Shown here: positions 912 through 60,371 of the stretch, piece after piece | How the letters are laid out: each line of letters starts with the position of its first letter | How positions within the stretch are numbered: the first letter of the stretch is position 1 | Source: Candidatus Udaeobacter sp. | GTDB taxonomy: Bacteria > Patescibacteriota > Patescibacteriia > Magasanikbacterales > GWA2-37-8 | Reading direction: 5' to 3' | Assembly: GCA_035473115.1 (NCBI GenBank) | Contig: DATION010000005.1 | Location: forward strand, 4,399-68,398 | DNA: 64,000 bases | Position numbers and translations under genes: made by a program | The notes under the pieces: model-generated | Seen by the model: only the letters and a program-made list of their open reading frames with translations | Database searches by the model: none | Told to the model about the DNA's origin: nothing

Positions 912-1005
912 TGTCATTCCGAACTTTGTGTGAGGAATCTATTCCATAAAGTATAGATCCCTCGTCACCCGCTCTTCGCGAAGAGCGGGTTAACTCGGGA
1001 TGACA
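912..1005 (+). repeat. Palindromic repeat family 1, copy 1 (TGTCATTCCGAA ... CTCGGGATGACA termini with internal hairpins)
   Basis: Near-identical to the reverse complement of 4476-4588 and to 37130-37219. Contains an inner GAGGAATCTAT/ATAGATCCCTC stem and an ACCCGCTCTTCG/CGAAGAGCGGGT hairpin. Lies 4 nt after the tsaD stop and overlaps the dnaE stop. Confidence 0.85.
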
Positions 1006-4000
1006 GTAAGCAATTCATCTTTTAACTCCTCGCAATCTTTAACCAAAAACGAGGTTTTAATTATTTTATCTTCAACTTTTAAAACCACCGGCTTATCCCC
1101 GGGATATTTTTTTAAAACACTTTTTATAGCATCAGCTTTATTTTTTAACTGCTCAGCGCTAACTATTATTTCAAAAGATTCATTTGCATCAAAAGAAACT
1201 TTTGATTCATCTGCTTCTTTTTTAGCATTATTTTGCGCGCCTACAGACATCTGCTTTGCCAAAATCGGAGCGTTTTCCGGCGTAAGCAAATAAGCTTTTT
1301 CTACAAACAACTTATCATCGCCTTCTTCTTCGGAAGTGCGGCCAATCACACAAACCGGTTTGCCTTCCACCCAAACATCAGCAGTAGTTTCATAAGTTTT
1401 CGGAAAGATTAACAACTCCAGATTGCTGGTAGTATCTAAAATTTTGGCAAACATCATGGCTTTGCCGCCGCGAGTGATTTTTTTCTTGGTTGAATCAATC
1501 ATACCCCCAACCACCACCCATTGATTTCTGGACTGACTGGACAAATCTTTAAGCGGAGTCAAAACATCCTTCATTATCTTTTGATAAATTGTAAACGGAT
1601 GCGAAGTAACATACAGACCAAGCAGTTCTTTTTCCCATAAGAGCTTTTCATCTTCACTAGCATTGGGCGCTGAGGCTAATTGAATTTTGGCAGACATATC
1701 TATATTGGTGCCGGCAAATAAAGAATTTTGATTGGCAGGACTTTTTTCATGAATCTGTTTAATAAAAGCCAAAATATTTTCTATATTCCCGGCCAAATAA
1801 CCGCGATCATAACCAAAACAATCCAATGCGCCGCATTTTATCAAACTTTCCAAAGATTTTTTATTCAAATCTCTATCCTGTACTCGGGTAAGCAAATCTT
1901 GCAAATTTTTATATTTACCATTGGCTTTGCGTTCACGATAAATAGCTTCGGCAATATGTTCACCCAGGTTTTTAATGCCATTTAAACCAAAACGGATATG
2001 CGGTTGCGATCCATCTTCGGGAGAAATCATCGCAAAATTCTTAAAGCTTTCGTTGATGTCCGGCGGCAAAACTTTTACTCCCATTCTTTCCGCTTCATAG
2101 ATAACTTCCGGTACTTTATCAATATCACCGCTTTCGGCAATCAAAATAGCGGTCATATATTGCACTGGAAAATTGGCTTTTAGATAAGCGGTCTGATAAG
2201 CCACCACCGCATAACTGGCCGCATGAGCTTTGTTAAAACCATAAGCGGCAAATGGTTCGATGCGCTGCCAAAGATTATTAATCTTCTCCGGCGGCAACTT
2301 GCCAATTTCTTTGGCGCCTTTATAAAACTTTTCTTTCTGCTTAGCCATTTCTTCGGGAATCTTCTTACCCATCGCTTTGCGGAATTTATCGGCTTCTTCC
2401 CAGTTATAACCGGCCAAATTTATCGCTGTAAGCAACACATCGTCTTGATAAACAATTAATCCCAAAGACTGATCCAGATAATCTTTCATTCTCGGATCTT
2501 CGTATTCTATCAACTGCGGATTATTTTTTCTTTGAATATAATCGGGGATAGAATCCATTGGGCCGGGGCGAAACAAAGCCACCATCGCCATGATATCAAA
2601 AATTGAAGTGGGTTTAAGTTCTTTTAAATATCTGGTCATGCCGGAACTGGCCAGCTGAAACACACCAACAGTTTCACCGCGCGCCAACATTTCATAAGTT
2701 TTTTTATCATCCCATGGATACAAATTGTGCACATCAATTTTTTTACCGGTTGTTTTGGCAATAATTTCTACGGCGTGACCTAAAATTGATAAATTGCGAA
2801 TACCCAAAAAATCCATCTTCAAAACTCCGGCTGCTTCCACCGAATGCATTTCGTATTGAGTAATTATTCTTTCACCGCCCGTTTCCAGCTGCACGGGAGT
2901 AAAATCAGTCAAAGGAGTCGGCGAAATAACTACCCCGGCCGCGTGAATAGAAGTATGCCGAGCACAGCCTTCTACTTTTTGCGCCAAGTCCAGCAAACGT
3001 TTGACATCGGCATTTTTTTCATATAACTTTTTTAATTCCGGTTCCAGGTTCAAAGCTTTAGCAATAGTCATCTGAAAACCTTGGGCGCCAAAAGGAATAA
3101 GTTTGGAGACTTGATCACAAAAAGAGTATGGAAAACCCAAAGCTCGCCCCACATCTCGCACTGCTCCGCGCGCGGCCATCGTACCAAAAGTAATAATTTG
3201 CGCCACTTTATCGGCCCCGTATTTTTTAGTTACATAAGCAATCATTTCGTCACGCTTATCATCGGCAAAATCACCATCCACATCCGGCGGGCTAGGACGA
3301 AACGGATTTAAAAATCTTTCAAAAGGAAGTTTAAAAAACAAAGGGTTAACTGTCACAATACCCATAGCATACGAAACTATAGATCCTGCCGCAGATCCTC
3401 TGGTTGTAACCATAATATTGTTATTGCGAGCATAACCAATATAATCAGCTACGGTTAAAAAATACGGCGAGTAGCCTTTGGTCGCGATAATATCCAATTC
3501 ATAATCGACGCGCTTTCTCACTTCATCCGTTATTTCTAGTAATTTTGGCAATTTTTCATATACTTGTTCGCGCAAATACTCATTAGCTGTTTTCCCTTCC
3601 GGAATTTCTATGGCCGGAAAGTGCCACTTGTTTAATTCTAAAACCAAATTGGCACGCTCAGCTATTTTTACGGTATTAGTAATTGCTTCCGGCGTATGTT
3701 TAAAACGATTAATAATATCTTTTGCCGGAGCCAAAGAACAATCAAAGCCGCTCATACTCATACGATTTTCTTCATCCAGCGTCCGGCCGTCTCTGATACA
3801 AGTCAAAATATCTTGCGCTTCGGCATCTTCCGGTTCTAAGTAATGTGAATCGCGAGTAACAATTAACGGAATGCCGGTGTCTTTAGATAGTTGAGCAAGT
3901 TTTGTATTCAATTCCATCTGTCCTTCCAGACCGGGCAGATCCATCATTTCCAAATAAAAATTTCCTTTACCAAAAATTTCTTCGTATTCTAAAGCAACTT

Positions 4001-4481
4001 TTTTAGCTTTGGCATAATTATCTTCTTTGCGTAAAATCCAAGGAATTTCTCCGCTAAAACAGGCCGAAGAAGCAACTAAGCCTTCATGGTATTGTTTTAA
4101 TAATTCTTTATCAATTCTTGGTTTATAATAAAAACCTTCCAAGTTAGACAGAGAAGAAAGTTTCATTAAATTTTTGTAGCCCGTATAATCTAAAGCTAAT
4201 AAAATAAGATGATAATATTTATCGTCTTTATCTTTATCAAAACGGCTACCCGGAGCCAAGTAGGCTTCCATGCCGATAATTGGTTTTATTCCCTCTTTTT
4301 GGCAGCACTCATAAAATTCAATGGCGCCATACATATTGCCATGATCGGTCAGCGCCAAAGCTTTATAACCTAAACTTTTGGCTTTAGACACCAAATCAGG
4401 AATTTTGGATAATCCGTCTAAAAGAGAATAATGGGAGTGAACGTGAAGATGGACAAAATCAGACATACTATTGGTTGTCAT
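990..4481 (-). CDS. dnaE: DNA polymerase III alpha subunit DnaE
   Basis: PHP-domain N-terminus with FVHLHVHSHYSLLDG and full-length polIII alpha homology. The reported ORF has a 29-aa N-terminal extension running through repeat copy 2. The most likely start is ATG 4479-4481 (MTTNSMSDFVH), alternatively 4466 (MSDFVHLHVHS). Confidence 0.9.
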   Translation of the reverse strand: MTTNSMSDFVHLHVHSHYSLLDGLSKIPDLVSKAKSLGYKALALTDHGNMYGAIEFYECCQKEGIKPIIGMEAYLAPGSRFDKDKDDKYYHLILLALDYTGYKNLMKLSSLSNLEGFYYKPRIDKELLKQYHEGLVASSACFSGEIPWILRKEDNYAKAKKVALEYEEIFGKGNFYLEMMDLPGLEGQMELNTKLAQLSKDTGIPLIVTRDSHYLEPEDAEAQDILTCIRDGRTLDEENRMSMSGFDCSLAPAKDIINRFKHTPEAITNTVKIAERANLVLELNKWHFPAIEIPEGKTANEYLREQVYEKLPKLLEITDEVRKRVDYELDIIATKGYSPYFLTVADYIGYARNNNIMVTTRGSAAGSIVSYAMGIVTVNPLFFKLPFERFLNPFRPSPPDVDGDFADDKRDEMIAYVTKKYGADKVAQIITFGTMAARGAVRDVGRALGFPYSFCDQVSKLIPFGAQGFQMTIAKALNLEPELKKLYEKNADVKRLLDLAQKVEGCARHTSIHAAGVVISPTPLTDFTPVQLETGGERIITQYEMHSVEAAGVLKMDFLGIRNLSILGHAVEIIAKTTGKKIDVHNLYPWDDKKTYEMLARGETVGVFQLASSGMTRYLKELKPTSIFDIMAMVALFRPGPMDSIPDYIQRKNNPQLIEYEDPRMKDYLDQSLGLIVYQDDVLLTAINLAGYNWEEADKFRKAMGKKIPEEMAKQKEKFYKGAKEIGKLPPEKINNLWQRIEPFAAYGFNKAHAASYAVVAYQTAYLKANFPVQYMTAILIAESGDIDKVPEVIYEAERMGVKVLPPDINESFKNFAMISPEDGSQPHIRFGLNGIKNLGEHIAEAIYRERKANGKYKNLQDLLTRVQDRDLNKKSLESLIKCGALDCFGYDRGYLAGNIENILAFIKQIHEKSPANQNSLFAGTNIDMSAKIQLASAPNASEDEKLLWEKELLGLYVTSHPFTIYQKIMKDVLTPLKDLSSQSRNQWVVVGGMIDSTKKKITRGGKAMMFAKILDTTSNLELLIFPKTYETTADVWVEGKPVCVIGRTSEEEGDDKLFVEKAYLLTPENAPILAKQMSVGAQNNAKKEADESKVSFDANESFEIIVSAEQLKNKADAIKSVLKKYPGDKPVVLKVEDKIIKTSFLVKDCEELKDELLTVIPS

Positions 4482-4588
4482 CCCGAGTGAACCCGCTCTT
4501 CGCGAAGGGCGGGTGACGAGGGATCTATACCGAATTATTAAATAATAATGTATAGATTCCTCACCCACTATGGGGATTCGGAATGACA
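4476..4588 (-). repeat. Palindromic repeat family 1, copy 2 (inverted relative to copy 1)
   Basis: Reverse complement matches copy 1, including the ACCCGC(C/T)CTTCGCGAAGAGCGGGT hairpin. It carries an extra AT-rich palindromic loop (ATTATTAAATAATAAT). The terminal ...TGTCAT supplies the dnaE ATG. Confidence 0.85.
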
Positions 4589-4680: not shown

Positions 4681-4718
4681 AAAACCCTCGAACCAATGCA
4701 AGCAAAGGTCCGAGGGCC
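4681..4718 (-). terminator. Rho-independent terminator downstream of the 4781-5275 gene
   Basis: On the minus strand: CCCTCG stem, 19-nt loop, CGAGGG, followed by a T6 run. Confidence 0.55.
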
Positions 4719-4780
4719 GAATCGCGTGTAGATATGACTCTACACCCGGGTCTGGTTGGACTACTGCTTAGTTAGAGCGG

Positions 4781-5275
4781 TTAGCCCGTTGCTTGAAATT
4801 TGAAGATCTGTTTACAGGCTGGAGACGGTGCGGAGGAAGGAGTTCCATCATTATTGAAGCCGTAAGCTTCTATAGTGAACTCAGCACCTTTTCCAAGTCT
4901 GCCCTGGATATGCCAGAACTCCAAGACCTTGTCGTTAATGCCACCGGGATACAGGATCCAACTTTCGAAGGTGGCGTCTTTGTGAACTAGGACTTTTGGG
5001 AAACTGAATACCCATTGAGGTAAGTCTGTTTTGGGATTGAATATCAGCAAGGCTATGTCGTTGATACGACTATCCACCTTTTCCCGATTTTCCTCGACCC
5101 GCAGCTGTCCACTTTGGACATAAACAGCTCCGTTATCTTCGATGAATCCGTCACAGACAGAGTAAGAGGAAACATCTCCTTTGGCTCCCGAAAGAATGGT
5201 CACTGACGAATCAGACTGACCATTGAGGCAAGCGCCAAAGAACAAACTGAGCAAAACAATCATACGCTGCCACAT
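4781..5275 (-). CDS. Hypothetical secreted protein (signal peptide), compositionally atypical
   Basis: N-terminal hydrophobic signal MWQRMIVLLSLFFGACLNG. Higher GC and G/C-ending codons than the surrounding genes. Strong SD (AAAGGAGGG) 6 nt before the ATG. Confidence 0.6.
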   Translation of the reverse strand: MWQRMIVLLSLFFGACLNGQSDSSVTILSGAKGDVSSYSVCDGFIEDNGAVYVQSGQLRVEENREKVDSRINDIALLIFNPKTDLPQWVFSFPKVLVHKDATFESWILYPGGINDKVLEFWHIQGRLGKGAEFTIEAYGFNNDGTPSSAPSPACKQIFKFQATG

Positions 5276-5402
5276 CGCGACCCTCCTTTAAATTTAACCT
5301 AACCCTTACCCAGACACCATGTCCAGTTAAAGGATTGATTATCCTAAAACAAAAACGATCACCTGTCAATGATCGAATTTGATTAATATAATTAATGATT
5401 TT

Positions 5403-14785: not shown

Positions 14786-14896
14786 CAAATCATTATTGAT
14801 TTTTGCAGCGGCCATCGCACCCTCAGATGGGTGCCTGCAGGGCATTTGCCTGTCCCCTTTAGGGGGGCTGCCAGAAAATTAATAATAATTAATTAT
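14786..14896. repeat. Palindromic repeat family 2, copy A (core TTTTTGCAGCGGCCATCGCACCCTCAGATGGGTGCCTGCAGGGCATTTGCC with AT-rich inverted flanks)
   Basis: The core recurs at 40598-40681 and inverted at 24652-24735. Nested stems GCACCC/GGGTGC and TGCAG/CTGCA. Lies between two minus-strand genes. Confidence 0.7.
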
Positions 14897-24644: not shown

Positions 24645-24651
24645 ACGATTT

Positions 24652-24735
24652 AATAGGTGCTAATTTTTTTGTTTCCAAATGCCCTGCGGGCACCCTCCCG
24701 AGGGCGCGATGGAAACTGCTAAAATTGGCACCTAT
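24652..24735. repeat. Palindromic repeat family 2, copy C (inverted orientation) flanked by the 9-bp IR AATAGGTGC/GCACCTATT
   Basis: Its core CCAAATGCCCTGCGGGCACCCTCCCGAGGGCGCGATGG is the reverse complement of the copy A/B cores. The element is 84 nt, the same size as copy B. Confidence 0.65.
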
Positions 24736-32582: not shown

Positions 32583-33794
32583 TTACTTTTTAGCAGCCTT
32601 TTTCTTTTCTTTGGCTGGAGCTTTAGTTTTTTCTTCTTTTTCTTCTGCCTCGGCTGGCGCTTCAACTTTTTCCACTTTTTTCACTTTACCTTTTACACCA
32701 AAAAGTCTTAAACCCAAGCGGTGCTCTGGCGGTTCCAAAGAAACAATTTCAAAGTCAGTAGTCTGGCCAATTTTGAATTTATCACCAATATTGCCAGTGC
32801 CTTCATCGGTAAGTTCCGAAATATGAGCCAAACCATGAATATCCTTATCCAAGGCCACCATCAAACCAAACGGTTCAATCTTCAAAATCTTGCCGGCAAC
32901 TTTGTCGCCAACTTTATATTTATCTTTAACCATCTTCCATGGATCATCTACCAAACGTTTGATGGATAGATAGATTTTTGATCTGTCCAACTGAATAATT
33001 TGCGCTTTAATTCTGTCGCCAACTTTCAAGATATCTTTTGGATGATCAATACGCTGCCAAGCAATCTCGGAAATATGAACCAAGCCTTCTAAGTCCTGGC
33101 CAAACTTTACAAAAGCGCCAAATGAAGTGAGGGCGCTGATTTCACCTTCCACTACATCGCCAACTTTGTAAGATTCTAGTACTGCTTTTTGAGCGTCTTC
33201 CCAAACTGCTTTTTCGGAAACGATTAATTTTTCTTCTTTTTCATTAACATCAATAACTTTTACTTCCATTTCTTTACCGATAAGTTCACGCAATTTTTCT
33301 AAAATACGATTCTTGTCTCCGCCCATAACGCGCGGATAGTGCTCCGGATTTAATTGAGAAACCGGCACAAAACCAGGCAAACCTTCTACCTGTACCATCA
33401 AACCGCCTTTGTTGGCAGCCAAAACTTTGGCTTTGATAGTAATACTGTCTTGCATCCACTTGCGAACATTGTCCCAAGCGCGAGCAAAACCGGCAATACG
33501 GAATGACAATTCCATTTCACCGTTTTCGTTTTCTAATTCCAAAACTGTTGCTTCGACTTCATTGCCAACTTTTAAATTAGCGTATTCTTTAGCTTCACCA
33601 AATAGTTCGCGGCCGCGGACTACACCCACGGTTAAACCTTCAATATCAACATGCACTTCACCTTTGTCGATAGAAATAATTTTACACTTTACCACGTCGC
33701 CAACTTTAGGGATGGTTAAAGCGTATGACGAAAACAAGGTTTTAAAATCTTGTTTTTCTAAATCTTTTTCTTCTGATTTTTCGTGTTTAGTCAT
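32583..33794 (-). CDS. rpsA: 30S ribosomal protein S1 (four S1 domains, Lys-rich C-terminal tail)
   Basis: Repeated S1-domain signatures. Confidence 0.8.
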   Translation of the reverse strand: MTKHEKSEEKDLEKQDFKTLFSSYALTIPKVGDVVKCKIISIDKGEVHVDIEGLTVGVVRGRELFGEAKEYANLKVGNEVEATVLELENENGEMELSFRIAGFARAWDNVRKWMQDSITIKAKVLAANKGGLMVQVEGLPGFVPVSQLNPEHYPRVMGGDKNRILEKLRELIGKEMEVKVIDVNEKEEKLIVSEKAVWEDAQKAVLESYKVGDVVEGEISALTSFGAFVKFGQDLEGLVHISEIAWQRIDHPKDILKVGDRIKAQIIQLDRSKIYLSIKRLVDDPWKMVKDKYKVGDKVAGKILKIEPFGLMVALDKDIHGLAHISELTDEGTGNIGDKFKIGQTTDFEIVSLEPPEHRLGLRLFGVKGKVKKVEKVEAPAEAEEKEEKTKAPAKEKKKAAKK

Positions 33795-37129: not shown

Positions 37130-37219
37130 TGTCATTCCGAATCCCCACTCAGGGGGTGAGGAATCTATTCATTTTAAAGTAAAGATCCCTCGTCGGCTAC
37201 GGCCTCACTCGGGATGACA
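37130..37219 (+). repeat. Palindromic repeat family 1, copy 3
   Basis: TGTCATTCCGAA...TGAGGAATCTAT...AGATCCCTCGTC...CTCGGGATGACA. Its terminal GGGATGACA creates a spurious upstream ATG for nusG. Confidence 0.85.
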
Positions 37220-37231
37220 AACACATTGTAT

Positions 37232-37777
37232 ATGGCAAAACAGACCCTCAACCTTGGCAAACGCTGGTATGTGCTCCACACTTACAGCGGCTACGAAGAA
37301 AACGTAAAAAGCAATCTCGAGCAACGTATCGAGTCTTTTGCCATGCAAGACAAAATTTTTCATATTTTGGTTCCTAAAGAAAAGAAAATAAAAATCAAAA
37401 ACAGCAAACGTTCAGTGGTGGAAGAAAAAATGTTCCCGGGATACGTCTTAGTAGAGATGATTGTAACGGACGATTCTTGGTATGTGGTTCGCAATACTCC
37501 TAATGTTACCGGTTTCGTTGGCTCTGGCACTACCCCAACCCCAATTGATCAAGCTGAAGTTGATGGTTTAGTAAAACGAATGTCCGCTTCCGAACCGCAA
37601 CACAAAATTGACTTTGAAGTTAATACTCCGGTACGTATCACTGATGGACCGTTTAAAAACTTTGAAGGCAAAGTAAGTAATGTTGATCAAGAAAGAGGCA
37701 AAGTTAAAGTTCTTATCACGATGTTCGGTCGCGAAACGCCGGTAGAACTTGACGCAATGCAGGTTAAAAAGATTTAA
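37232..37777 (+). CDS. nusG: Transcription termination/antitermination factor NusG
   Basis: [16 protein letters not shown] domain and a C-terminal KOW. Start trimmed to [14 protein letters not shown]. Confidence 0.9.
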
Positions 37778-40579: not shown

Positions 40580-40597
40580 AAAAAATTAGCTAGTTTA

Positions 40598-40681
40598 ACC
40601 AATACTGATTTTTGCAGTGGCCATCGCACCCTCAGGAGAGTGCCCGCAGGGCATTTGGCTACAAGAAAATTAGTATTGGTT
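40598..40681. repeat. Palindromic repeat family 2, copy B, flanked by the 10-bp IR AACCAATACT/AGTATTGGTT
   Basis: Core TTTTTGCAGTGGCCATCGCACCCTCAGGAGAGTGCCCGCAGGGCATTTGGC. Lies between two minus-strand genes. Confidence 0.7.
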
Positions 40682-59171: not shown

Positions 59172-60371
59172 ATGAAAAAGATCGGCATTGATATTCGTTG
59201 CTTAATGTCTCCGCTGCGCGCCGGCGTGGGTGAATATACCCACGAACTGCTGAGCGCTATTTTTAAGCTTGATAAAGAAAACCAGTATTGGCTTTTTTAT
59301 AATTCCCATACAGATGTCTTTGCCCATATTCCACTTTGGTCAGGAAGCAATATTCATTATGTAGCCACCAAATGGCCGAACAAACTATTTAACGCTTTTA
59401 TAAAAATATTTGGCTGGCCAAAACTGGATAAATTAATTTCCCGCAACGGCAAGCTGGATTATTTTTTTTCACCCAACTTTAATTTTACGGCCTTATCCAA
59501 AGATACAAAAAATATTTTAACTGTCCATGATTTATCATTTAAATTTTTTCCACAATTTTTCTCCTTAAAACAAAAATTATGGCACTGGGCAATAAACCCA
59601 AAAAAACAGTGTCAACAAGCCAGTTTTATAATTACTCCTTCGGAAAATACCAAACGGGATATTGTGGATTATTATAAAATCCCAGCAGAAAAAATAAAAG
59701 TTGCGGGCGGCGGTTTATCGGGAATTTTCGTCTGTCATTCTGAGCGTAGCGAAGAATCCCTTAAACCAAGCCAAAGGGATCCTTCGGTCGCTTCACTCTC
59801 TCAGGATGACATACGAAAAAAATATAATTTACCAAATAAATTTATTCTCTGTTTGGGAGCGGTTGAATCGCGAAAAAATATCATTGGCTTAATTGAAGCT
59901 TTTGAAAAATTTTCCAAAACTACAACGGGCTATTCTTTGGTAATTGCCGGCAGTGGCCGAGGCTGGAAAAATAAAAAAATATACGCTCGAGCTTTGGCTT
60001 CACCGCTGCGCAATAATATCGAATTTATCGGTTATGTGGATGCGCAAGATAAGCCAACTCTATACTCTATGTCTGAACTGTTTGTTTATCCAAGTTTTTA
60101 TGAAGGATTTGGTTTTCCGGTTTTGGAGGCCATGGCCTGCGGTGTGCCGGTAATAACTTCTAACCGATCTTCTTTGCCGGAAATTACCGAAGGCGCAGCC
60201 TATTTAATTAACCCCAACCGCCCAGCTGAAATCGCTGCAGCAATTACAAAACTGATTTCTGACACAAAGCTACGAGAATATTTTATAAAAAAAGGACTAG
60301 AGCAGGTTAAGAAATTTAGTTGGCAAGCCGCAGCTCAAAAATGGCTAGATATTTTAAATAAATCAACTTAA
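59172..60371 (+). CDS. Glycosyltransferase family 4 carrying an in-frame palindromic-element insertion
   Basis: EGFGFPVLEAMACGVPVITS. An extra ~27 aa (VCHSERSEESLKPSQRDPSVASL) sits between the two Rossmann halves and is encoded by repeat copy 4. Confidence 0.8.
   Translation: MKKIGIDIRCLMSPLRAGVGEYTHELLSAIFKLDKENQYWLFYNSHTDVFAHIPLWSGSNIHYVATKWPNKLFNAFIKIFGWPKLDKLISRNGKLDYFFSPNFNFTALSKDTKNILTVHDLSFKFFPQFFSLKQKLWHWAINPKKQCQQASFIITPSENTKRDIVDYYKIPAEKIKVAGGGLSGIFVCHSERSEESLKPSQRDPSVASLSQDDIRKKYNLPNKFILCLGAVESRKNIIGLIEAFEKFSKTTTGYSLVIAGSGRGWKNKKIYARALASPLRNNIEFIGYVDAQDKPTLYSMSELFVYPSFYEGFGFPVLEAMACGVPVITSNRSSLPEITEGAAYLINPNRPAEIAAAITKLISDTKLREYFIKKGLEQVKKFSWQAAAQKWLDILNKST
59733..59811 (+). repeat. 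Palindromic repeat family 1, copy 4, inserted in-frame inside the GT4 coding sequence
   Basis: TGTCATTCTGAG...GAAGAATCCCTT...AAGGGATCCTTC...CTCAGGATGACA. Its terminal stems show compensatory changes relative to copies 1-3 (CCGA/TCGG becomes CTGA/TCAG). Confidence 0.8.

Follow-up and report, generated by a model that had tools for sequence, protein, structure and literature searches.

Inverted copies of a small hairpin-ended mobile element flank dnaE in a 64-kb bacterial contig segment and share their ends with elements bearing a GIY-YIG nuclease gene

We analysed a 64,000-nucleotide stretch of contig DATION010000005.1 (hereafter the window), in which the DNA polymerase gene dnaE lies between two inverted copies, c1 and c2, of a short repeat. 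The results showed that c1 and c2 are genuine copies of a very small hairpin-ended mobile element. The explanation that we consider probable is that they are separate insertions of a non-autonomous doublet resembling a miniature inverted-repeat transposable element (MITE), derived from elements that bear a GIY-YIG gene, and that the start codon of dnaE is native. The repeat had originally been predicted to donate both the start and the stop codon of dnaE; the prediction held at the 3' end and failed at the 5' end.

Repeat copies and their hairpin modules

The window contains nine matches to TGTCATYCCGA with at most one mismatch, compared with 1.12 expected, and none of 100 shuffles reached nine. 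Eight of them are the paired ends of four elements, c1 to c4 (Table 1). The ninth, a one-mismatch half-site at 33498-33508 inside an S1-domain gene, had no partner stem and was treated as chance. The four copies have the traits of MITEs, being small (79-113 nt), present several times and without coding capacity, and ending in inverted repeats of the form TGTCATYCYGA. Inverted copies do bracket dnaE as first proposed, and the span of the pair, put at ~3.7 kb, was measured as 3677 nt. c1 and c2 have in common an arm of 55 nt with 96% complementarity (53 of 55 positions identical), the two arms being 3470 nt apart and their identity split into shorter perfect runs; the CCCGAG-type ends of both copies face dnaE. 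Searched against Rfam 15, the window as a whole had no hit reaching the gathering score, and c2 had none with E<=1.

Every copy has the form of a doublet, in which two hairpin modules are arranged as an inverted pair, and the module reads TGTCAT-NNN-GA-(variable hairpin)-GA-N'N'N'-ATC, with GTCATTCC-GA-GC-GNA-GC-GA-GGAAT as its minimal form. GC-GNA-GC mini-hairpins, like GNA triloops with a C-G closing pair and tandem G.A pairs, have unusual stability as DNA. Folded as single-stranded DNA, the four copies gave -16.6 to -24.6 kcal/mol (z -3.5 to -6.1), with -22.3 kcal/mol (z -6.1) for c1 and -24.6 kcal/mol (z -5.7) for c2. In the predicted branched structure, the ends of the element pair with each other and the inner hairpins make up the arms. 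In c4 the stems carry compensatory changes, TTCT/AGAA and TCCT/AGGA replacing TTCC/GGAA and TCCC/GGGA. Covariation was also assessed on modules from the protein-selected loci described below, anchored only by GTCAT-NNN-GA...GA-NNN-ATC. The triplets were fully complementary in 155 of 171 modules, with 15 stem types, compared with 25.8 on average and at most 42 in shuffles, indicating strong stem covariation.

A scan with one pattern and one genome per species found the module in at least 120 loci of Chloroflexota, Acidobacteriota, Bacteroidota, Proteobacteria, Planctomycetota, Nitrospirota, Firmicutes and Verrucomicrobiota. The matches listed also included several Patescibacteria, a Rickettsiales metagenome-assembled genome (MAG) and one Nanoarchaeota MAG, and the same pattern occurred in at least 120 IMG/VR contigs. 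The module is found in most bacterial phyla. In the fetched loci the modules mostly formed convergent pairs (119), whose sizes were bimodal, at 60-180 nt and 340-500 nt. No abutting direct repeat was present in 93 of these 119 pairs and the remainder fit chance, indicating that there is no target-site duplication. The flanks of the pairs showed only a bias, towards a pyrimidine preceding the left end and a purine following the right end.

The conserved end, read inward, contains no stop codon in any frame and, read outward, gives an ATG in one frame; open reading frames (ORFs) therefore extend into the element, which offers gene callers false starts. Two ORFs of other genomes were seen to stay open across a module pair: a DnaE2-like ORF of a Sulfotelmatobacter MAG with a 329-nt pair (L015, 4480-4808), and pheT of a Rickettsiales MAG with a 62-nt doublet in frame (L012, 4082-4143). 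Separately, complete modules were often preceded, 8-12 nt upstream, by a further copy of the first 11-18 nt of the element end (L202, L004, L016, L025, L049, L063, L090, L099 and L108). L202, the Planktothrix agardhii plasmid NZ_LR882964.1, has three tandem 23-nt units, CTGTCATTCTGAGTTCTCCTGTG, at 1520-1590. Such end repeats may be footprints of repeated insertion or excision, or extra binding sites.

Table 1. Repeat copies in the window and the features of dnaE that they adjoin
Feature	Position	Strand	Description
c1	912-1005	+	94 nt; starts 3 nt past the tsaD stop
c1 left module	912-939		TGTCATTCCGA...GAGGAATC
c1 right module	~956-1005		GATCCCTCG...CTCGGGATGACA
c2	4476-4588	-	113 nt; opposite orientation to c1; after the conserved dnaE promoter-like boxes and before the dnaE start codon
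c3	37130-37219	+	90 nt; secE-nusG spacer
c4	59733-59811	+	79 nt; in frame within a GT4 glycosyltransferase ORF
dnaE coding sequence supported by homologues	990-4466	-	1158 aa; starts MSDFVHLHVHS
Element-derived end of the dnaE coding sequence	990-1005	-	Third base of the T codon, V I P S, TAA (990-992)
Probable native dnaE start	4466-4464	-	ATG; 9 nt downstream of the c2 end
Spurious in-frame ATG	4481-4479	-	In the ATGACA end (4481-4476) of c2; five codons before MSD
GTG opening the mechanical ORF	4566-4568	-	ORF 990-4568, 1192 aa; 29-residue extension through c2
Promoter-like boxes of dnaE	4641-4604	-	TTGATT (4641-4636), 17 nt, TAAGAT (4618-4613), then AGGCGAGTT (4612-4604)

The 3' end of dnaE

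The dnaE boundaries were compared with those of six relatives, which DnaE identity sorts into two clades. Clade A comprises the window, L001, L206, L205 and L204 (86-89% to one another). Clade B comprises P0017 and L203 (94% to each other and ~79% to clade A), and L203, the 94%-identical sister, was used in place of P0017 for DNA comparison.

On the minus strand dnaE ends with CTT ACT GTC ATC CCG AGT TAA (1010-990). Copy 1 had been predicted to encode the final TVIPS and the stop, and it does: V, I, P, S and TAA lie inside c1, together with the third base of the T codon. The tails of element-free relatives are short and unrelated (...EELKNLLG, ...EELKEII, ...ELGQVI), and in L001, L204 and L206, which lack the element, the tail of dnaE shares 8-12 nt with that of tsaD. 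DnaE of P0017 ends in TVIPN*. L203 carries another member of the family on this side, TGTCATCCTGAACTTGTTTCAGGATC...CAGCATGACA, which gives L-S-S and a TGA stop in another frame. Since the relatives' tails differ and are unrelated, TVIPS* in the window is a true element-derived replacement of a non-conserved tail. From these comparisons, the predicted DnaE tail and stop codon are element-derived.

The 5' end of dnaE

The element termini had been thought to overlap both ends of the coding sequence. This is so at the 3' end, where the stop lies in c1; at the 5' end the native start is 9 nt downstream of c2. Comparison of the DnaE termini with those of relatives gave the same division: the C-terminus differs from element-free relatives, whereas the N-terminus MSDFVHLHVHS agrees.

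The motif M-x-x-F-(V/T)-HLHVHS begins nearly all of the best 70 DnaE homologues, and an NCBI protein of 1158 aa that is 100% identical begins with MSDFVHL. A collection of 15 billion proteins did not contain the 1163-aa form. L203 has the same element in the same place, but 7 nt separate its ATGACA end from the downstream MSD start codon, with which it is out of frame. In the single-stranded DNA fold, the ATG of c2 is within the terminal stem of the predicted hairpin, while ATG 4466 is 9 nt beyond the stem base in open AU-rich sequence, which favours ATG 4466. Thus, copy 2 supplies the first in-frame ATG and not, as homologues, the NCBI protein and L203 indicate, the true start. The 29-aa N-terminal extension was correctly described as running through copy 2, in the ORF opened by GTG. 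Because homologues and recorded proteins start downstream, the ATGs inside c2 and c3 are accidents of the ATGACA end, and these ATGs and the GTG extension are, as judged from the aligned proteins, read-through artefacts.

Among ~40 gene starts of the window that we inspected, almost none had a Shine-Dalgarno sequence, so its lack before ATG 4466 is normal here. These starts are AT-rich upstream, often with a TATAAT-like box very near the ATG (e.g. 13096, 49248, 55081). In L001, L204 and L206, TA[AC]GAT and exactly 9 nt precede the dnaE ATG, and a box reading TTGATT or TTGCTT lies 17 nt further upstream of this -10 box. Leaderless mRNAs typically have this layout, and dnaE looks leaderless in the element-free relatives, which suggests that leaderless translation is common in the lineage. 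The corresponding boxes of the window are missing from the list of a consensus promoter scan (8/12 matches). If the conserved promoter is still used, c2 probably creates a dnaE leader of ~145 nt that is mostly hairpin. Neither within c2 nor at its end did we find a convincing -10 box that could make dnaE leaderless again.

Close to the dnaE start, L203 also has a palindromic insert with a GCGATCG core (3010-3066), in frame after codon 3 (MSD-PSTRSRLAIGTGQVLFIIME-FVHLHVHS); the outcome is either 20 extra DnaE residues or a restart of translation at an internal ATG.

Occupancy of the dnaE boundaries and the question of inversion

Both dnaE boundaries were empty in L001, L204 and L206, and filled sites were found in L203 and P0017. 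The window and L203 keep the promoter boxes and have the same block between AGGCGAGTT and the ATG, made up of 15 nt, the element and 7-9 nt. They therefore have c2 in common together with its flanks (~15 nt and 7-9 nt), and it is absent from closer relatives. In the P0017 contig the gap 5' of dnaE looks too short for an element. L205 has unrelated insertions (~560-700 and 4235-4300), a ~105-nt direct-repeat-rich insert (GGTCAAGTTGGTCAAGTT...) on the 5' side of dnaE and an AT-rich palindrome on the 3' side; the two boundary spots of dnaE accept several kinds of insertion. Element occupancy at dnaE does not follow the DnaE tree, indicating repeated gain at hot spots, lateral spread with flanks, precise loss, or a combination of these.

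The gene order M50-pheS-pheT-small ORF-dnaE><tsaD was the same in all relatives examined, with or without elements. The assembled orientation of dnaE is therefore ancestral, and no fixed inversion was seen. Recombination between c1 and c2 could physically invert the segment, a possibility raised in the original prediction; it is unsupported here, and inversion would separate dnaE from its conserved promoter. A composite transposon carrying dnaE was considered and ruled out by the conserved synteny. dnaE is precisely bracketed because this very compact genome tolerates insertions at two spots there, and the bracketed segment is not a functional unit.

These observations also bear on the idea that the hairpins are RNA or DNA signals selected by the host, such as terminators, mRNA stabilisers or 5'-untranslated-region regulators, or that the inverted pair inverts or regulates dnaE. 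The location of c1 between convergent genes and of c2 in the dnaE leader would suit such roles, as would the strong folds of both copies and the 96% likeness of their 55-nt arms. However, no U-tract follows the hairpins and a terminator scan omits them; there is no Rfam match; copies lie in frame inside genes; and their presence varies among relatives with DnaE 87-94% identical. Together with an orientation of dnaE that is ancestral in every relative examined, and a promoter from which inversion would cut the gene, this makes a host-signal role very improbable.

Some further features were seen around dnaE. In L206 a terminator-like hairpin, ACCCCGCCCTTCGCGAAGAGCGGGGTTTTT, lies upstream of dnaE (~605-635), and the variable hairpin of the right modules of c1 and c2 (CCCGCYCTTCGCGAAGRGCGGG; 965-988 and 4493-4516) is nearly identical to it. 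It may be that hairpins from elsewhere are captured or exchanged at the apex of the module. The window has, between the small ORF and dnaE, an ORF of 164 aa (4781-5275, minus strand; region 4690-5330) with no Pfam match, a signal-peptide-like N-terminus and the sole clear Shine-Dalgarno sequence (AAAGGAGGG) among the starts inspected. Its GC content is 0.46-0.49, compared with 0.29-0.42 around it. It is missing at this position in L001, L203, L204, L205 and L206, and is therefore probably acquired DNA.

Copies at nusG and within a glycosyltransferase gene

The ATGACA end of c3 creates an in-frame ATG at 37214, six codons before the native nusG ATG at 37232. The original prediction called this ATG spurious; NusG is on record in its 181-aa form, and nearly all members of its 90% cluster have 181 aa, which agrees with that view.

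The GT4 ORF (59172-60371) reads c4 in frame as CHSERSEESLKPSQRDPSVASLSQDD, within the linker that joins its two Rossmann domains, Glyco_transf_4 (residues 18-178) and Glycos_transf_1 (residues 211-375). The closest empty orthologue reads ...SEIF-NKPTFDKQK-IKQKYNLP, and the window reads ...SGIF-VCHSERSEESLKPSQRDPSVASLSQDD-IRKKYNLP. Among 120 orthologues the linker exceeds 20 residues in 25, and element-type peptides are present in 23. These peptides stem from several subfamilies of the element and are of several kinds and frames (CHSE..., VIPT..., VILSEAKNL...LRMT, HPELVSGS...MLKQVQHD), some being half or double elements. Judging by the aligned linkers, the interdomain linker of GT4 is a recurrent in-frame landing site and a second hot spot.

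Association with a GIY-YIG nuclease gene

We clustered 1375 ORFs lying near modules in 120 loci, all against all, and found that no DDE, HUH, serine or tyrosine transposase recurs among them. The only element-linked ORF family was GIY-YIG. A small GIY-YIG ORF lay exactly between inverted modules in L038 and L014 and beside one module in L006, and the exact arrangement of an ORF between two terminal inverted repeats was present in L038, L014 and L122. The encoded proteins have 82-96 aa, consist of the domain only and match PF01541 (E 5.6e-15 and 2e-11). Matches were also found to the UPF0213 structures 1zg2 (E 1e-10) and 1ywl (E 2e-9) and, weakly, to SLX1, indicating that the element protein is a stand-alone prokaryotic Slx1-like nuclease; NCBIfam has no model for it. 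On the ORF strand the layout is TGTCATTCCGA-hairpin-GGAGGAATCC-TTTC-ATG...stop-reverse module, from which the module provides the ribosome-binding site (GGAGGAAT) of the nuclease gene.

With an alignment of three nucleases as query, we then retrieved 80 metagenome loci, for which similarity of the protein was the sole criterion. A forward module was present within 160 nt upstream in 42 of 73 and a reverse module downstream in 34 of 67; modules on both sides occurred in 26 of 60, and the resulting elements measured 354-652 nt. Stand-alone UPF0213/Slx1-like GIY-YIG proteins thus have flanking modules at about half of their loci. In a cultured example, the Planktothrix agardhii plasmid, the nuclease gene lies among doublets and the triple 23-nt stutter of the end sequence. 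The subterminal motifs of c4, GAAGAATCCCTTAAA / AAAGGGATCC (also GGAATCCCTTAA / TTAAGGGATTCC), and those of c1 to c3, GGAATCTAT / ATAGATCC, are common to full-length elements, and the window copies are therefore read as internal-deletion derivatives. We found no description of the element in full-text literature, the search covering one literature collection; the gene-bearing family has apparently been described nowhere that we found.

The absence of a recurrent transposase near modules also concerns a second alternative, in which the repeats are of the REP/REPIN type, moved by RAYT, an IS200/IS605-like Y1 HUH transposase, with the GIY-YIG link secondary. In its favour, the elements are ~80-110-nt doublets of inverted imperfect palindromes without target duplication, and their hairpins consist of motifs that are very stable in single-stranded DNA, as in d(GCGNAGC) mini-hairpins, with strong single-stranded folds. 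The 120 loci nevertheless gave GIY-YIG as the sole element-linked family, and the search that started from the protein gave ~50% module flanking. The end sequence is the same across phyla, while REP families are lineage-specific; many copies are intragenic, and there is no GTAG-type tetranucleotide. We regard this alternative as quite unlikely.

Weighing the origin of the insertions

That c1 and c2 are separate insertions derived from gene-bearing elements remains the explanation that we think probable. Full-length relatives of ~350-650 nt carry the same two modules as terminal inverted repeats around one GIY-YIG gene; the window copies would have arisen from this form by internal deletion, and the nuclease might mobilise the elements by acting on hairpin or branched end DNA or through break repair. 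In a compact genome insertions would survive only where harm is small. c1 would have landed in the tail-to-tail overlap of dnaE and tsaD, where it replaced the last non-conserved DnaE codons and gave the stop; c2 would have landed between the -10 box and the start codon of dnaE, giving the ~145-nt leader. DnaE would then be unchanged except for its last five residues.

Several points weigh against this explanation. The 64-kb window contains no GIY-YIG gene; among the matches listed, only 3-4 of the 120 module-selected loci have the gene; and about half of the protein-selected loci have no detectable module on a given side. In-silico excision of c1 or c4 fails to restore the frame or linker of the relatives, indicating that these insertions were not clean or were later reworked, and hence no precise target sequence can be given. 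The promoter and leader of dnaE are read from sequence conservation only. GIY-YIG enzymes are nucleases, and to our knowledge none is a transposase or has strand-transfer activity, so that mobilisation driven by the nuclease is something we purely infer.

Alternatively, the palindromes may have come first and the nuclease gene may have invaded them later. In this most serious rival account, it is a homing endonuclease gene that invades doublets spread by other host or unknown means. The architecture would be equally expected, doublets far outnumber gene-bearing copies, and patchy occupancy of the same site resembles homing, as with c2 and its flanks in the window and L203 and not in closer relatives. 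Against homing, the protein is a minimal domain of 82-96 aa without the DNA-binding module of homing endonucleases, the constant distance between the gene and the ribosome-binding site that the module gives it points to an integrated unit, and nothing else able to move doublets was found near modules in the 120 loci. We therefore judge the secondary-invasion account unlikely and prefer derivation from gene-bearing elements.

A bolder proposal, which we put forward tentatively and rather doubt, is that the repeats are the non-autonomous form of an undescribed class of element, spread over most bacterial phyla, whose ends are covarying hairpins with a GNA triloop and tandem G.A pairs, whose only gene encodes a minimal Slx1-like GIY-YIG protein and which moves without target duplication via hairpin or branched intermediates or break repair. 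The same proposal includes co-conversion of flanks and repeated landing in tolerant spots, in frame within genes. If it is true, this nuclease family would join the known transposition enzymes, and 'housekeeping' UPF0213 proteins would be recast as largely selfish.

Implications

The effects on dnaE look small: a five-residue tail and a stop codon from selfish DNA, and a probable structured leader of ~145 nt. The element family is of more interest than these consequences. Gene callers were offered false starts at dnaE and nusG, and the element is likely a source of systematic errors in start-codon and ORF-length annotation across phyla and in viral contigs. It also likely yields many 'hypothetical' peptide segments (CHSERSEES, VIPSEARN, ...LGMT). 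The recurrent in-frame insertions are natural experiments on protein positions that tolerate extra segments. If the link to the nuclease is causal, the element would be a very small and very widespread type of transposon with an unusual enzyme, and the UPF0213 family would have a direct, testable function.

Source lineage and a second repeat family

The NCBI proteins of the contig are labelled Candidatus Udaeobacter sp. (Verrucomicrobiota), but Patescibacteria or Magasanikbacteria are the source of every close homologue of its DnaE, NusG and glycosyltransferase. Mis-binning or mislabelling of the contig is probable, and its protein homologues place the genome in Patescibacteria near Magasanikbacteria.

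Another family of repeats in the window has copies of ~55-75 nt, the core TTTTGCAGYGGCCATCGCACCCTCAGGAGGGTGCCCGCAGGGCATTTGG and 82-86% identity, at 14788-14851, 40597-40660 and 24648-24725 (reverse). Two copies lie just upstream of gene starts on the minus strand and one lies between convergent genes; they gave no Rfam match at the gathering score.

Comparison with known systems

The stand-alone Slx1-like/UPF0213 GIY-YIG proteins (1zg2, 1ywl) are the group to which the protein of the full-length elements belongs. Dunin-Horkawicz et al. (2006, PMC1564403) regarded this stand-alone group as mainly vertically inherited housekeeping nucleases, and their survey mentions no flanking repeats. It does report one GIY-YIG domain recently inserted inside an HsdR gene, which fits mobility.

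We also compared the behaviour of our elements with that of the Rickettsia palindromic elements. Both are short palindromic repeats scattered in a small genome with no transposase in the short copies, and both often insert in frame in genes and are read through where extra residues are tolerated, in our case in the GT4 linker and at the DnaE C-terminus. The Rickettsia palindromic elements were reportedly described by Ogata et al. in 2000. Unlike these elements, which are known from Rickettsia, the present family spans many phyla and has gene-bearing full-length members.

Like REP, BIME and REPIN sequences, the elements are inverted doublets of imperfect palindromes that cause no target duplication and are probably active when single-stranded or extruded. 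They differ from the REP/REPIN-RAYT system in having no linked Y1 transposase, copies that are also intragenic, ends conserved across phyla, and a GIY-YIG nuclease as their gene. With IS200/IS605 elements they have hairpins and the lack of duplication in common, but they end in true inverted repeats, and the neighbouring ORFs included neither TnpA nor TnpB.

The likeness to bacterial MITEs such as Correia elements lies in the terminal inverted repeats, a size of 80-110 nt, many copies, effects on adjoining gene ends and leaders, and ends shared with a longer coding element. The longer elements with the same ends have 354-652 nt and encode the GIY-YIG nuclease, which may have a part in mobility. 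Unlike MITEs, the present elements make no target-site duplication, their parent encodes a nuclease domain of ~85-95 aa and not a DDE transposase, and each inverted repeat is itself a hairpin with a covarying stem.

Finally, the full-length elements resemble GIY-YIG homing endonuclease genes of the I-TevI type in being a selfish GIY-YIG gene with patchy occupancy of the same sites and shared flanks. They differ in having no NUMOD or other DNA-binding domain and no intron or intein host, and in possessing their own inverted repeats and, even in one genome, many unrelated insertion sites in place of a single cognate target.

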